Shown here piece by piece: positions 33,934 through 56,217 of a stretch of 64,000 bases of DNA. The DNA comes from Chloroflexota bacterium (GTDB lineage: Bacteria > Chloroflexota > Dehalococcoidia > E44-bin15): NCBI GenBank assembly GCA_034189655.1, contig JAXHUE010000005.1, positions 4,408 through 68,407 on the forward strand. Reading direction: 5' to 3'. The first letter of the stretch is position 1; every line of letters starts with the position of its first letter. The translations under genes and the position numbers were made by a program. The notes beneath the pieces were generated by a model that was given only the letters and a program-made list of their open reading frames with translations, searched no databases and was not told the DNA's origin.

Positions 33934-34560
33934 GTGCGAGTAAATTGGGCACGAAGGCTAGCCGGCGATCAGCGAGGCATCACTGGCCTCGAGACCGCCA
34001 TCATACTCATCGCGTTCATCATGGTTGCCTCGGTATTTGCCTATGTGGTCCTCTCGGCGGGCCTGTTCTCCTCGCAGGAGGCGAAGGAGGTGGTCTACGA
34101 GGGAGTGGAGGAGGCCAGGAGCACCGTCCAGCTCAGGGGCAACGTCCTGGCCAGGATGGAGGGCGGGATAGCCACGGAGGTCTACTTCACCGTAGGCAGC
34201 ATGGCGGTATCCGAGCCCGTGGATTTCACCGATACATCAGAGGGGGACAACGTGGTGGTGATCTCGTACAGCGATGCCTATAACCAGTACCCCTCGCTGG
34301 ACTGGACCATGGAGCGTATTAGCACCATGAACGATGACAACCTGCTGGATGCCAACGAGCTGTTCCAGGTCACCGTAGACCTCGCGCAGGTCAACTGGGA
34401 GGACTGGGAGGCCGACCCCCCCCAGACACCGAGGCCATCGGAGCAGCAGCTGGTGGCCTATCGCGGCTTCACTCTGGAGGTAAAGCCCCCCAATGGGGCG
34501 GTGCTCACTATAGAGCGCACCCTGCCTGCGAGGGTAGAGCAGGTAGTGAATCTCTACTAG
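33934..34560 (+). CDS. arlB: Archaellin (ArlB/FlaB) 1
   Basis: Class III signal peptide [66 protein letters not shown] 33934 has an SD, ATG 33907 is an alternative start. Confidence 0.92.
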   Translation: MRVNWARRLAGDQRGITGLETAIILIAFIMVASVFAYVVLSAGLFSSQEAKEVVYEGVEEARSTVQLRGNVLARMEGGIATEVYFTVGSMAVSEPVDFTDTSEGDNVVVISYSDAYNQYPSLDWTMERISTMNDDNLLDANELFQVTVDLAQVNWEDWEADPPQTPRPSEQQLVAYRGFTLEVKPPNGAVLTIERTLPARVEQVVNLY

Positions 34561-34666
34561 GGGGGCACCAGATGGATACGATTTACCAGCAATGGGTCGA
34601 AAGGAGGTGAGGCATACACTTCGATCGTGACGATAACCATATCCTAGATATAGGAAAGGAGGAAAA

Positions 34667-36253
34667 ATGCTCAAGAAGCTAATACGACCGATACACAAGG
34701 ACGAAAAGGGAATAACCGGCCTCGAGACGGCCATCATCCTGATCGCCTTCGTGGTAGTAGCCGCGGTATTCGCCTACACCGTGCTCAGTGCCGGGCTGTT
34801 CTCAACCCAGAAGGGCCAGGAGGCGGTCTACTCCGGGCTGGAGGAGACCCAGAGCACCCTGGAGCTCAAAGGGGCAGTGGTGGCCCACGGCGAGAGCGAG
34901 CTGCACGACGGCAACTGCTGGGTGAACACCAACTCAACCAAGGTGACTACGTTCCAGCAGGACACCGCCAACAAGGCGACGGCCCCGGGCAGCGTCAAGC
35001 TGGTGGCCGATGCCGACTACAGCACTACCGCGGAGGTGATCTGCTACCACGACCTGGACGTGCCGGTGAGCCTCTCCAGCGGCGATAAGCTCAACATATG
35101 GCTGCGCAACAACGACGGCGTAAACGCCCTGGACGTGGCAAGCGGCCTGGAGCTGGTGCTCGATACCGACACCACCCACACCGGGGTTATAGGCACGTGG
35201 TCCAACAGCCTCACCTTCACCGGGTCGCTCGCCGCATCCACAGCGAGCACGTTCGAGAGCAGCGCGCTGGGCGCCCCAGTGACGGTCTACGCGGTGGGGC
35301 TCAAGGCCAAGGCCGACTTCAGCACCACCAGCATGCAGCTCAGCTTCGATGACATCGAGGAGAGCACCGAAGGGTCGCCGCAGGTCGACACCTGCGACGC
35401 CGTGTGGACGCCGACGGCAAACATCAACTTCAGCGGGAGCACCACCAATGTGGAAGGCTATGGTGCTGCTCAGTTCACCCTGGCGGGGGCGGCGATAAGC
35501 TCGGCCACGGAGCTGGGCACCATCGTCATCCCGACGAGGGACTTGAGCAGCAACGGCTACATCCACTTCTGGATACGGTCCAGCGTCGACGTCTTAGATG
35601 ACGCCACCGAGTACATGGCGCTCATCCTCCAGGACGACGGCGGCGACAGAGAGTCGTCACAGGGCACCGTTGGTGCGCTCACCGCCGGGACGTGGAAGAA
35701 GGTGAGCTGGGACATAAGCTCGCTTGACGTCGATAGCGTCGATGAGATCACGCTCAAGGTTGCGGGCAGTGGCCCATCGGTGGCCGATACCTCCAGCATC
35801 TACATCGACATCATCGAGACCGAGCCCGTCCTGAGCACCACCTATCCGATGAAGGCCTACGCCGACGAGTTGGTGTTCACCGTGTCCTGCGTGGCCGGTG
35901 GCGAGGACATCGACTTCACCATGCCCACCGACAGCGACAGCAACGGCCTGCCCGATGCCAACAGCCAGCACAAGGTGGTCATCTCCTTCAACGACCCGTA
36001 CATGGAAGTGAGTGACATCTCATGGAGCAAGAGCGTCGTGGGCAAGGACGACGGTGACAACCTGCTGGAGATCGACGAGAAGTTCCAGATCACGGTCGAC
36101 CTCTCCTACGTGAACAACCAGACCACTCTCGACGTGGAGAAGCTGGGCATCAACCGCACCTTCACCGTCGAGGTCAAGCCGCCCAAGGGTGCCGTGCTCA
36201 TCATCGAGCGCACCATGCCGGGTAAGGTAATGGCGGTAAACAACCTGTGGTAA
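34667..36253 (+). CDS. arlB: Archaellin 2 with two inserted jelly-roll/CBM-like domains (528 aa)
   Basis: [33 protein letters not shown], archaellin C-terminus [10 protein letters not shown]...[11 protein letters not shown], ~300-aa insert. Confidence 0.92.
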
Positions 36254-36325
36254 AGCGGGGTAGGCCTATGTGAAGAAGAGGAGATGTCACCCGCTGACCA
36301 GGAGCAACTCAGGAAAGGAGGAAAA

Positions 36326-53939: not shown

Positions 53940-54296
53940 ATGCCAAGGATACTGGTCGTAGACGACGCTGCCTTTATGCGTATGCGGTGTGCCAAGCTGC
54001 TCAACGAGAAGGGGTACGAGGTGGTCGAGGCCGGGGACGGCCTCGAGGCCCTGGAGAAGTTCAAGGAGTGCCGGCCCGACGGCGTACTCCTCGATATCAC
54101 CATGCCCAACATGGACGGGATAGAGACGCTCAAGAAGCTCACCGAGATGTACCCCGACGCCAAGGTGGCCATGGTGACCGCCATGGGGCAGCAGTCGATG
54201 GTGATAGAGGCCTTGAAGTCGGGGGCCAAGGACTTCGTGGTCAAGCCCTTCGATGCCGACCGGGTGCTCTCTGCGGTACAGAAGCTGGTGGGATAG
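53940..54296 (+). CDS. cheY: Response regulator CheY
   Basis: VVDDAAFMRM, LLDITMP, MVTA, DFVVKPF. Confidence 0.96.
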   Translation: MPRILVVDDAAFMRMRCAKLLNEKGYEVVEAGDGLEALEKFKECRPDGVLLDITMPNMDGIETLKKLTEMYPDAKVAMVTAMGQQSMVIEALKSGAKDFVVKPFDADRVLSAVQKLVG

Positions 54297-54337
54297 TGGC
54301 GGGCGTTTTCGAAAATGCCGTTCCCAAGAGGTGCCAG

Positions 54338-55402
54338 GTGAGAGACAAGGTCAGGGTGCTCATAGTCGATGACTCCGCCTTCGCCAGGTTCGCCATCGCG
54401 CGCGAGCTCAGGCTCGATCCCGCTATCGAGGTGGTGGACTTCGCCAGCGACGGCGTCGAGGCCGTGGAGAAGGTGCAGGCGCTGAGGCCCGACGTGGTGA
54501 CCCTCGACGTAGAGATGCCCCGCATGGACGGCCTCGGTGCCCTGGAGCGCATCATGACGACGTGTCCCACGCCGGTGGTCATGCTGAGCAGCATCACCTC
54601 CGAGGGGGCAGAGGCCACCATACGTGCGCTGGAGCTGGGCGCCGTCGACTTCTTCCTTAAGCCCTCGCTCTCGACGCCGGCAGGGTCTGGCGATGGCACC
54701 AGCGGCCTGAGGGCCAGGGTGATGACGGCGGCCGCGGCCAAGGTGTCCCCCTTATGGCGAGGGCGCGGCACGGAGAGGGTAAGGACAGAGACCCGGCCAC
54801 TCCCCAAGAACATCTCGCCGCAGATGGTGGCGGTCATCGGCAGCTCGACCGGAGGGCCCAGGGCCCTCTACCAGCTCATGCCAGACCTGCCCGCCGACAT
54901 ACCGGCGGCCGTCCTCGTCGTGCAGCACATGCCGGCCGGGTTCACGAAGTCACTCGCCGAACGGCTGGATCAGCTCTCGGCGGTACGGGTCAGAGAGGCC
55001 GCGGCCGGGGATGTGCTGAGGGAGGGGGAGGCCCTCATCGCCCCCGGCAACTACCACATGACGGTGACCGCGAAGGGGACCGTAGAGCTCAACCAGGGCC
55101 CTCAAGAGTGCGGCGTGCGGCCCTCGGTGAACGTGACCATGGAGTCGGCGGCGCGGGCGTTCGGCGCCGCGGTGGTAGGTGTGGTGCTCACCGGCATGGG
55201 CGCCGACGGCACCAGGGGGGCAGGCCTCATCAGGGCGGCCGGGGGCAAGGTGGTGGTCCAGGACGAGTCCACCTGCACCATCTACGGGATGCCCAAGAGC
55301 GCCATCGCGGCCGGAAACGTGGACCTGGTGGTGCCCCTGCCCCAGATGGCCGCGGAAATGATCCATGTGCTCAAGAATGGGCGGGGTGGCAGGCGGCCAT
55401 GA
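54338..55402 (+). CDS. cheB: Methylesterase CheB
   Basis: REC domain (VDDS, TLDVEMP) plus GSSTGGP, VQHMP, LTGMGADG. GTG start 54338. Confidence 0.96.
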   Translation: MRDKVRVLIVDDSAFARFAIARELRLDPAIEVVDFASDGVEAVEKVQALRPDVVTLDVEMPRMDGLGALERIMTTCPTPVVMLSSITSEGAEATIRALELGAVDFFLKPSLSTPAGSGDGTSGLRARVMTAAAAKVSPLWRGRGTERVRTETRPLPKNISPQMVAVIGSSTGGPRALYQLMPDLPADIPAAVLVVQHMPAGFTKSLAERLDQLSAVRVREAAAGDVLREGEALIAPGNYHMTVTAKGTVELNQGPQECGVRPSVNVTMESAARAFGAAVVGVVLTGMGADGTRGAGLIRAAGGKVVVQDESTCTIYGMPKSAIAAGNVDLVVPLPQMAAEMIHVLKNGRGGRRP

Positions 55403-56217
55403 ACGAACGAGAGTACTCGTATCTCAAGGGAAAGATATTGAAGCTGGCCAACATCGATATCGATTGCTACAAGGAGCAGCAGATGCGCCGTCGCCTCGAT
55501 GGCTTCATCGCACGGCACAGCCCCCAGGGCGTCATCGCCTACTGCAACACGCTGGAGCGGGACCGGGGCCGACTCCACGAGCTCCTGGCGTTCCTCACCA
55601 TCAACGTGTCCGAGTTCTGGCGCGATGTCGCCCAGTTCCGCACGCTCAAGGAGGTCGTCCTGCCCCAGCTCCTGGCGCGGAGCCCGCGGCTCAACATATG
55701 GAGCGCTGCCTGCTCCCGCGGCCAGGAGCCGTACACCATTGCCATTGTCCTGGAGGAGCTCTGCCCCGCCCGCAGGCACCGCATACTGGCCACCGATATC
55801 GACCAGGACGCCCTGGCCTATGCCAGCGCCGGAGGGCCCTATCCCCCCTCTGATATAAAGAACGTAGAGCGCCACCTGCTCGAGAGATACTTCGTGGAGA
55901 CCGACAAGGGGTTCTCGGTCGCAGACTGCATAAAGAAGAGGGTGGAGTTCCGCCACCACAACCTGCTCTACGACCCGTTCGACGAGGGCTTCGACCTGGT
56001 GCTGTGTCGCAACGCCATTATCTACTTCTGCGACAGTGTCCGGGACAGGCTCTTCGCCAAGTTCAATCGCTGTCTCAAGGAGGGGGGAGTGCTCTTCGTC
56101 GGCGGCAGCGAGGTCATGCTGCGGCCGGGCGACATCGGCTTCGTTCACATGATGCCGTCTTTCTATCGCAAGCTTCACTCCGTGGCCGAAGAGGCGGCAA
56201 CGGCAGGAGCATTGTAG
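55399..56217 (+). CDS. cheR: Methyltransferase CheR
   Basis: LTINVSEFWRD, IWSAACSRGQEPY, ATDID, LCRNAIIYF. Confidence 0.96.
   Translation: MNEREYSYLKGKILKLANIDIDCYKEQQMRRRLDGFIARHSPQGVIAYCNTLERDRGRLHELLAFLTINVSEFWRDVAQFRTLKEVVLPQLLARSPRLNIWSAACSRGQEPYTIAIVLEELCPARRHRILATDIDQDALAYASAGGPYPPSDIKNVERHLLERYFVETDKGFSVADCIKKRVEFRHHNLLYDPFDEGFDLVLCRNAIIYFCDSVRDRLFAKFNRCLKEGGVLFVGGSEVMLRPGDIGFVHMMPSFYRKLHSVAEEAATAGAL

Follow-up and report, generated by a model that had tools for sequence, protein, structure and literature searches.

An archaellum gene cluster and an adjoining chemotaxis operon in a Dehalococcoidales-related Chloroflexota bacterium

The archaellum cluster and the chemotaxis operon

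The stretch of 64,000 nucleotides analysed here, called the window below, is taken from an 88,809-base contig (bases 4408-68407) of a draft genome of 1.79 Mb (57 contigs), and carries at 33907-56217 an archaellum (arl) gene cluster followed directly by a chemotaxis (che) operon (Table 1). Twenty open frames lie there head to tail on the plus strand, over about 22 kb in one direction, and all twenty genes are open, without internal stops. We consider it likely that this locus combines a complete euryarchaeal-type archaellum cluster, in a bacterium related to the Dehalococcoidales, with the only chemosensory operon of the genome, placed after it on the same strand.

Table 1. Genes and features in and around the arl-che stretch (window positions; aa, amino acids; TM, transmembrane; MCP, methyl-accepting chemotaxis protein; c-di-GMP, cyclic di-GMP)
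Feature	Position	Strand	Basis
GAF-GAF-GGDEF, diguanylate cyclase type, outside operon	27113..29326	+	GGDEF 150.8 bits, GAF 122.7
NarL/VraR-type response regulator, atypical	32435..33178	-	GerE 49.9 bits; divergent from arlB1
c-di-GMP-I-GGC type riboswitch aptamer	33408..33489	-	RF03167, 67 bits (gathering 59), E 1.2e-13, full model 1-80
ArlB1 archaellin, 217 aa	33907..34560	+	Arch_flagellin 90.7 bits; class III N-terminus
ArlB2 long archaellin, 528 aa	34667..36253	+	Arch_flagellin 77 bits, 2 stretches; class III N-terminus
ArlB3 archaellin, 234 aa	36284..36988	+	Arch_flagellin 102.1 bits; PDB chain 9i5h/9SIE/9SII, E 8.9e-40
ArlB4 archaellin-like, 373 aa	37112..38233	+	Arch_flagellin 64.7 bits, N-terminal 68 model positions only; class III N-terminus
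ArlG-like stator protein, 158 aa	38390..38866	+	NCBIfam ArlG 31.2 (cut-off 110), Arch_flagellin 31.8; N-terminal TM segment
ArlF-like stator protein, 177 aa	38878..39411	+	FlaF_Ig-like 23.9 (cut-off 28.4), Arch_flagellin 29.3; N-terminal TM segment
ArlJ platform protein, 501 aa	39465..40970	+	NCBIfam ArlJ/FlaJ 400.8 (cut-off 570), T2SSF 32.1; 6 TM-like segments
X, ArlD/E-like, 366 aa	41163..42263	+	conserved in 36 aligned loci (alignment A2); weak remote ArlD/E links
ArlH, KaiC-like ATPase, 239 aa	42363..43082	+	NCBIfam FlaH 249.8 bits (cut-off 194)
ArlI motor ATPase, 592 aa, T2SSE	43092..44870	+	NCBIfam FlaI equivalog 662.5 bits (cut-off 550)
Y, cluster-terminal disordered protein, 236 aa	44946..45656	+	no Pfam/NCBIfam match; alignments A1 (32 sequences), A5 (49 sequences)
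MCP, soluble, 1386 aa	45845..50005	+	Pfam 6 PAS, HAMP, HAMP_2, MCPsignal; no TM-like segment
CheW (start uncertain)	49995..50606	+	CheW 145.2 bits; alternative starts
CheA, 682 aa	50737..52785	+	Hpt, P2, H-kinase_dim, HATPase_c, CheW domains; 682-aa form on record
CheC-type phosphatase	52801..53397	+	CheC 36.9 bits, CheX 30
CheD	53399..53914	+	CheD 102.7 bits
CheY, 118 aa	53940..54296	+	Response_reg 112.5 bits; NCBIfam CheY_Halo 103.2; PDB 1TMY 130.9, 6ER7 128.7
CheB (start 54338 or 54356)	54338..55402	+	CheB_methylest 218.3 bits + receiver 77.5
CheR	55399..56217	+	CheR 170.5 bits, CheR_N 24.2; ATG at 55399
HD1, degenerate HD-GYP-like, after cheR	56230..57312	+	HD_5 106.1 bits; HHE..GFP, no HDxGK
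HD2, sensor (4 TM-like)-GAF-PAS-HD-GYP	57798..60638	+	Pfam, TM segments, motifs
PilT-like ATPase	60656-61870	+	T2SSE 126 bits
Tandem-HD_5 protein	61807-63135	+	HHE..GYP
Convergent HD_5 protein	63231-63983	-	HHE..GYP

A sequence-only reading of this DNA had listed four archaellins with arlG, arlF, arlJ, arlH and arlI, and by Pfam and NCBIfam every one of these genes is in its place on the plus strand, arlG and arlF through weak matches. The four archaellins all score above the Pfam cut-off of Arch_flagellin (29.5 bits), a family whose matches are confined to this locus genome-wide, and they have one common hydrophobic class III N-terminus behind a basic leader. The closest solved relative of ArlB3 is the archaellin of Litorilinea aerophila (9SIE/9SII, E 8.9e-40), both accessions being those of the L. 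aerophila filament (PMC12488501). The motor ATPase ArlI, which passes the FlaI cut-off, reaches 170.8 bits with the TadA-type model, and among PDB entries it gives 450 bits with FlaI (4II7) as against 154 with CpaF. The alternative that the ATPase and the pilins belong to a Tad or type IV pilus is therefore rejected, ArlI being nearest to FlaI and not to CpaF and ArlB3 nearest to a solved bacterial archaellin, and the assignment to the archaellum stands. The ArlG-like protein is 60-74% identical in related loci and the ArlF-like protein is placed after it, as in arl2 loci; in the case of ArlJ, the top three NCBIfam models are all ArlJ/FlaJ, each below its cut-off (400-570), and T2SSF is above its own. 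By its gene content, the cluster is a true archaellum cluster of the euryarchaeal arl2 type, with G before F, and as judged from these profiles it is probably complete.

Archaellins usually measure about 220 aa; ArlB2 (528 aa) and ArlB4 (373 aa) are far longer, and could have a minor or specialised role in the filament. In some genomes of the class (G024:C1:86847-90281, G121, G170, G383), two ArlI genes stand in tandem, with an identity of about 51-56% to the window's ArlI.

It is very improbable that the cluster would be a decaying relic, or would build a non-motile type IV filament for adhesion or secretion. L. aerophila was indeed long described as non-motile, archaella have remained unseen on SAR202 cells (PMC12488501, PMC10444878), and the presence of ArlI in just 3 of the 24 other genomes of the same family points to frequent loss. 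The locus has nevertheless kept its twenty genes open, it retains ArlH, which is specific to archaella, as well as the stator genes of the ArlF/G-like kind, its ArlI lies above the FlaI equivalog cut-off, and orthologues are 60-75% identical across about 40 species-level genomes, which fits purifying selection. Maturation of the archaellins would depend on the single Peptidase_A24 gene of the genome, which lies on contig C5 beside a PilM-like gene and is of the bacterial type (A24_N_bact 113.4 bits). The genome search gave no match for the flagellar export gene FlhA, and the archaellum is therefore the sole swimming organelle encoded.

The che genes begin 189 nucleotides past Y, the last gene of the cluster, on the same strand, and the physical joining of the arl cluster to a complete MCP-cheWACDYBR operon, already noticed from the letters, is thereby borne out. 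The core F1 set of CheA (P1-P5), CheW, CheY, CheB and CheR is complete by Pfam, together with CheC, CheD and the MCP, and the genome holds one che system and one MCP only (PF00015 matches nowhere else); the most likely start of CheA is the ATG at 50737. Between 38000 and 57900, a promoter scan gives 4 sites compared with 3.5 in shuffled sequences, and terminator-like sites number 6 compared with 6.4, so that a single transcript is neither supported nor excluded.

The best curated models of both CheA and CheY are haloarchaeal (NCBIfam), that of CheA at 488.8 bits and below its cut-off of 950; the 120 best relatives of CheA are 46-62% identical, and the 11 among them that bear an organism name are all Chloroflexota. 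The archaeal adaptor CheF (PF04283) gives no match at E<=1 in this 97.12%-complete genome, the control being positive in three archaea. The locus had been described as an archaeal motor under bacterial-type signalling: the archaeal motor holds good, and the bacterial-type signalling is only partly borne out, the set cheW-A-C-D-Y-B-R being archaeal too, the best models for CheA and CheY haloarchaeal and CheF not found. The expression overstates the evidence: archaea have che genes of this class as well. What can be shown to be bacterial is the PilD-type peptidase, the NarL-type regulator, the c-di-GMP-type riboswitch, and the GGDEF and HD-GYP genes.

Host, assembly and relatives of the locus

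The host is a bacterium, a marine-sediment Chloroflexota related to the Dehalococcoidales with a small genome, and the contig is neither archaeal nor, at the arl-che junction, chimeric. The genome is rated 97.12% complete with an estimated contamination of 2.85%, and the G+C content of the window is about 65%. The same contig encodes GlmS and RecF (315 bits, cut-off 172), the latter a bacterial protein. ArlI relatives were confirmed 105 times in species-representative genomes, and the best 80 of the 105 were kept as loci, designated by L numbers: every title among these 80 is Chloroflexota (Dehalococcoidales, Dehalococcoidia, SAR202, Chloroflexi), at 51-71% identity, and many of the loci sit on long contigs. 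Another genome of the window's own family carries a 70%-identical ArlI. The locus L001 shares with the window the flanking genes for the regulator (64% identity), HD2 (51% over 909 aa) and a BACON-domain protein (50%). Classification of the contig, which the sequence-only reading had proposed as a check, thus comes out in favour of a bacterial host.

Coverage of the junction likewise comes out positive. Runs from seven studies of marine and marine-sediment metagenomes contain the ArlI-Y-MCP stretch, and contigs from four runs in three studies cover it; in run X4, which belongs to study P2 and not to the possible source study, a contig of 2,002 nucleotides spans 44396-46396 and bridges ArlI-Y-MCP, and pieces from runs X2 and X7 cover the two halves, ArlI-Y and Y-MCP. 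An assembly or binning artefact, by which an archaeal fragment would have been joined to bacterial DNA, is consequently given almost no credence. The draft nature of the genome with its 57 contigs, the contamination estimate, the G+C content of the cluster (0.60-0.66), somewhat below that of the upstream flank (0.65-0.70), and the presence on the contig of a V/A-type ATPase operon that is also archaeal-looking would speak for it; they are outweighed by recF on the same contig, the Chloroflexota titles of the best 80 of the 105 ArlI relatives, the regulator, HD2 and BACON genes that flank the cluster in L001 too, and the X4 bridge. An archaeal or chimeric contig is rejected on the same grounds.

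The window's proteins were mapped on the 80 loci and an ArlI tree of 81 rows (the window and the 80 loci) was built, in which the window's clade comprises 41 rows with an SH-aLRT support of 100. Wherever a locus of the clade extends far enough (37 loci), J precedes H-I and X stands between the J and H genes, and the order J-X-H-I is therefore a character of the clade; the other 40 rows, from SAR202 and other Dehalococcoidia, have the order H-I-J. The position of arlJ before H-I had been noted as differing from the usual archaeal order H-I-J: it is real, and not peculiar to the window, as it marks a clade of 41 of the 81 rows.

Che genes stand beside the cluster in 7 of the 81 rows, namely the window, L011, L032, L036 and L061 with the order J-X-H-I, and L056 and L060 with the order H-I-J; in L060, the matches upstream of arlH are limited to CheC, CheY and HD-like ones. 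In 32 rows a set of kinase, double-receiver, receiver-GAF-kinase and OmpR-type genes is found instead of che, 33 rows have neither che nor the two-component set, and 9 end too early; within the window's clade, the two-component relay occupies the che place in 31 of the 41 rows. The window pairs with L001 (support 93) inside a mainly two-component group (support 82, weak). We read the che-joined state as ancestral and later replaced by the two-component set, a second join being the alternative. The gene HD1 after cheR, followed by an HD2-type membrane sensor, is common to the window, L061 and L032, the HD1 counterparts being 58% identical in L061 and 53% in L032.

The N-terminal membrane module of HD2 (four TM-like segments, residues ~35-233) recurs, at 37-52% identity, as the N-terminus of the histidine kinase encoded after Y in two-component loci (L007 12494-13999 and about 30 other loci), the same sensor thus being fitted with different outputs. 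In two-component loci L007, L010, L012, L016, L018, L019, L021, L022, L024, L027-L029, L031, L035 and L039, a tRNA gene lies about 7-10 kb downstream of ArlI; because of this similar distance, the wider neighbourhood of the two-component loci is also syntenic.

Archaellum clusters have been reported in 243 Chloroflexota genomes, and the archaellum of L. aerophila has proved functional (Sivabalasarma et al., Nat Microbiol 2025, PMC12488501), so that the earlier statement that such clusters were already known in this phylum is confirmed in print. According to the same paper, most Chloroflexota have arlCDE homologues, the order of arlHIJ varies, arl2 denotes G before F, archaea couple CheY to ArlCDE via CheF, CheF is absent in Chloroflexota and the CheY adaptor is left open. 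A 2026 preprint (bioRxiv 2026) finds F1 chemosensory systems in 58 of 226 archaellum-bearing Chloroflexota and proposes that the phylum may have gained the F1 class jointly with the archaellum. Our search for literature on Dehalococcoidia archaella with chemotaxis found no relevant work beyond the 2025 paper and the 2026 preprint. As both the Chloroflexota archaella and the travelling F1 systems are already in print, the window leaves the general picture unchanged: it is a further, well-preserved case, with a direct arl-che join, of a kind described in 2025-26.

Several described systems can be compared with this one. L. aerophila likewise has a Chloroflexota arl2 cluster with G before F and an ArlCDE-like gene, its PilD is encoded outside the locus and it lacks CheF; on the other hand, it belongs to the Caldilineales, pilN/pilO lie next to its cluster, it has a single response regulator, and a chemosensory system was not detected in it (PMC12488501; bioRxiv 2026), whereas the window has the order J-X-H-I-Y and a full che operon with a single MCP directly after. 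'Candidatus Lucifugimonas marina' (SAR202; Lim et al., Nat Commun 2023, PMC10444878) is also a member of the Dehalococcoidia with tandem archaellins followed by G, F and then the H, I and J genes, but with the order flaGFHIJ and with an F1 system 997 kb distant (PMC10444878; bioRxiv 2026); the SAR202 paper names flaB and flaGFHIJ only. In SAR202-type loci Y follows ArlJ, whereas in the window it follows ArlI. The euryarchaeal arl2 cluster with adjacent F1 che genes, as in Archaeoglobus fulgidus, has the G-F order, an ArlD/E-type gene and che genes of the same class in common with the window (PMC12488501; bioRxiv 2026); in the window's genome, by contrast, CheF was not found, PilD is of the bacterial type, and a NarL-type regulator, genes of c-di-GMP metabolism and Y are present. 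For Y, neither the Atlas search nor ten looked-up profile clusters gave an archaeal lead, the profile matches carrying no taxa.

In the Dehalococcoidales MAG loci L011, L032, L036 and L061, several archaellin genes are followed by G-F-J-X-H-I-Y and then directly by che genes, the operon being succeeded in L061 and L032 by HD1 and an HD2-like sensor, as in the window; they differ in forming an ArlI clade of their own (SH-aLRT 100) and in carrying an open reading frame of 98-110 aa in place of the six-PAS MCP, CheW being seen in L011 only. The che operons of the Thermotoga/Bacillus type comprise the same CheW-A-C-D-Y-B-R set, and the nearest PDB entry of the window's CheY is 1TMY (130.9 bits), which we take to be the CheY of Thermotoga maritima. 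Their output is FliM/FliY of the flagellum, whereas no flagellar export gene was found in the window's genome.

In contigs of runs X2, X4 and X7, position 47997 is joined back to 46106, inside the MCP gene, with the same 34 letters between; such joins suggest a variable number of PAS repeats in related strains, or a repeat-driven ambiguity of assembly.

The divergent regulator and its c-di-GMP context

The gene divergent from arlB1 encodes a regulator whose profile, built from 23 orthologues, matches VraR in the PDB (E 1.6e-23 over 9-209) as well as NarL, and whose structure model has the (beta-alpha)5 receiver fold. The column of the phospho-acceptor aspartate holds Ser in the family consensus (S/G) and Gly in the window, and because its receiver is devoid of this residue the regulator is an atypical member of the NarL/VraR type. 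Of the 24 clade loci with at least 1 kb of upstream sequence, 23 carry an orthologue (48-64% identical) upstream of the first archaellin and on the opposite strand, the exception being L003; weaker matches occur in L061 and L056.

A riboswitch and a LuxR-type gene had been noted as the context of the archaellins. Both are present; the riboswitch lies on the minus strand, however, and leads the divergent LuxR/GerE gene, not the archaellins. In L009 a c-di-GMP-II aptamer (RF01786) occupies the same position in the regulator leader, so two riboswitch classes (RF03167 in the window, RF01786 in L009) stand at the same place in two lineages. The other 22 regulator-bearing loci have no aptamer at the Rfam gathering score, weaker elements not having been looked for; the Rfam gathering scans of 31 loci give c-di-GMP families in L009 and L001 only, and single-sequence nhmmer searches with the three aptamers give no further copies in the loci. 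The GGC variant of the c-di-GMP-I riboswitch may have an altered ligand. The L001 aptamer, of the c-di-GMP-II family (1864-1945, plus strand, 57.6 bits), lies about 540 nucleotides past the 3' end of the regulator gene, on the other strand, ahead of an open reading frame of 101 aa.

Between the regulator gene and arlB1, at 33690-33880, a block of about 200 nucleotides is conserved in all 12 aligned loci (alignment A3), with 19 invariant columns and an imperfect inverted repeat. It holds on the regulator strand a -35/-10-like pair, TTGCAA (33734-33729) and CATAAT (33711-33706), with a spacer of 17 nucleotides, and may contain a shared promoter/operator region.

Four HD_5 genes lie within 8 kb after the che operon, and the HHE..GYP motifs, which are hallmarks of HD-GYP proteins, are found in three of the four. 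The expression of the archaellum would probably be placed under the divergent Asp-less NarL-type regulator, here situated behind a c-di-GMP-type riboswitch and among GGDEF and HD-GYP genes. The association of such a regulator with c-di-GMP-type riboswitches suggests that a bacterial second-messenger control may have been grafted onto an archaeal machine. Among the matches listed for literature joining the archaellum and c-di-GMP, none deals with Chloroflexota archaella by title or abstract.

Proteins X and Y, coupling to the motor and outlying genes

The two additional open reading frames noticed within the cluster, X and Y, are real: they match no family, yet are conserved in the related loci. 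X has no Pfam or NCBIfam match, and its structure model consists of a helix (2-35), a disordered acidic and proline-rich linker of about 230 residues (36-269) and a C-terminal domain of four helices (270-364); N291, W295 and L356 are invariant in the 36 loci of alignment A2. It lies between J and H in J-X-H-I loci, and before ArlG in the H-I-J loci where it was detected. The Arch_fla_DE profile (PF04659) matches 1 of the 36 orthologues of X, at E 0.06. A match of 18.4 bits, the sole one of this profile in 401 sampled genomes of the class, falls in the G094 orthologue of X, whose gene precedes the ArlI gene of that genome by 2.1 kb, and hhalign of A2 against the G094 orthologue brings residues 290-336 of the window's protein onto the same PF04659-matching stretch (96.8%, E 2.9e-10). 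A structural lead in the Atlas goes to an archaeal Arch_fla_DE (PF04659) cluster with a TM score of 0.66. The X profile has no match at E<=1 among PDB sequences, Foldseek has none at E<=0.001 in the PDB, and a word-based search with A2 gave 15 matches, all of them lacking a Pfam domain as well as an archaeal name. X is thus ArlD/E-like, in its predicted features, and not assignable as a member of the Arch_fla_DE family.

Y consists of a basic N-terminal part, an acidic middle and, towards the C-terminal end, a conserved motif of some 50 residues. By its composition the protein is largely disordered; F191, L205 and P210 are invariant in an alignment of 32 sequences. In H-I-J loci, Y-like proteins of the same build and C-terminal pattern follow ArlJ and co-align with the first group (49 sequences). 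A profile of the motif retrieves 636 cluster representatives at E<=0.001, and in the best 150 of these it stands at or near the C-terminal end of the protein. Of ten clusters looked up, seven are named, all as 'hypothetical protein', and two bear an organism, both times Dehalococcoidales; the Atlas search with Y yields nothing but leads, namely Chloroflexota 'hypothetical' clusters scoring 0.79-0.80. Among 401 evenly sampled genomes of the class, the Y motif is present in 56, ArlI (E<=1e-90) in 79 and both in 52; the motif follows ArlI at 0.25-2.6 kb, on the same contig and strand, in 46 of these 52 genomes and in both gene orders, and Y is therefore a regular, unnamed member of arl clusters. 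Four genomes have the motif and no ArlI, one of them at E 8e-4, and 27 have ArlI and no detected Y motif. The main texts of PMC12488501 and PMC13319060 make no mention of an uncharacterized, unknown-function or disordered gene in the cluster. In the cited papers on Chloroflexota archaella, supplementary tables aside, we found no account of the Y family, of the conserved Asp-less regulator or of a single six-PAS MCP.

The model that we propose for the locus is as follows. The four archaellins would be cleaved by the PilD-type bacterial peptidase encoded elsewhere, and the filament would be assembled and rotated by ArlI/ArlJ, with ArlI modulated by ArlH, with ArlF/ArlG as the stator and with X, the ArlD/E-like protein, as a cytoplasmic accessory part. 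The soluble six-PAS receptor, whose domains would suit the intracellular sensing of redox or energy state, would signal through CheW-CheA to CheY, and adaptation would be achieved via CheB/CheR and CheC/CheD. As CheF was not found, X and Y, both encoded in the cluster, are the on-the-spot candidates for the step from phosphorylated CheY to the motor.

In the case of Y, the C-terminal motif presumably resembles the amphipathic acidic kind by which FliM and CheZ bind CheY, a lead only. When CheY (alignment A6, 5 rows) was modelled in complex with the last 61 aa of Y (A5, 49 rows), the ipSAE was 0.00 in two runs and the mark 0.32, evidence neither way. Could Y then be a Chloroflexota-specific archaellum component, which always closes the cluster and which, by its C-terminal helical motif, would serve as a CheF-like link from a receiver protein to the motor or would position the motor in the cell? 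We put this forward as a speculative proposal of low probability; if it were true, the Chloroflexota would have imported the archaellum and also built a new coupling part for it.

The alternative is that the che operon serves another output than the steering of the archaellum, either c-di-GMP turnover via HD1 or a type IV pilus. CheF was indeed not found, HD1 follows cheR here as in L061 and L032, a PilT-like ATPase is encoded just downstream together with three further HD-GYP proteins, PilM and PilD genes are present in the genome, and a two-component relay takes the che position in 31 of the 41 rows of the clade. We judge this alternative unlikely on account of the cheW-A-C-D-Y-B-R make-up, linked with archaella in the 2026 preprint, of the same-strand position of che 189 nucleotides after arlI-Y, with terminator-like sites no more frequent than expected (6 against 6.4), of the recurrence of the arl-che join in five other loci and two gene orders, and of the failure to find a flagellar export gene, which leaves the archaellum as the only swimming organelle encoded.

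Several observations weigh, on the other side, against a complete archaellum steered by the adjoining che operon. The identities of ArlF/ArlG and of ArlJ, taken from sequence profiles, lie below the curated cut-offs. Arch_fla_DE (PF04659, cut-off 21 bits) has no match at E<=10 in the window's genome and only the single sub-cut-off match of 18.4 bits, mentioned above, in 401 genomes of the class. The leader riboswitch is present in only 2 of the 24 regulator cases (the window and L009). L011, L032, L036 and L061 form a basal ArlI group (support 100) apart from the window, and the arl-che join of the window may be either retained or re-formed. No RNA run is listed for 43800-47800, which gives no evidence on expression, and the che control of an archaellum in the absence of CheF is inferred from adjacency only. 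With these points taken into account, we maintain as the likely reading that of a complete archaellum cluster followed by the genome's only chemosensory operon. The locus would then be a minimal system, in which a 1.8-Mb genome has gathered one receptor, one che operon and one motor into one 22-kb unit, with X and Y inside it as two conserved proteins of no curated family and candidate couplers, and it offers a compact case in which to ask how the signal of CheY is conveyed to the archaellum when CheF is missing.

Two further groups of genes lie on the minus strand of the window. A V/A-type ATPase operon at 2719-10379, with A, B, C/AC39, E and I subunits recognised through the Pfam families ATP-synt_ab, vATP-synt_AC39, vATP-synt_E and V_ATPase_I, is a second archaeal-looking machine on a bacterial contig. 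Upstream of the arl locus, at 10832-24041, possible modifiers of the envelope or of the archaellins are encoded: a CBM_4_9/CBM_6 protein of 1784 aa, a GT-C AftD-like transferase, GT1/GT4 glycosyltransferases and a polysaccharide-export-type protein.

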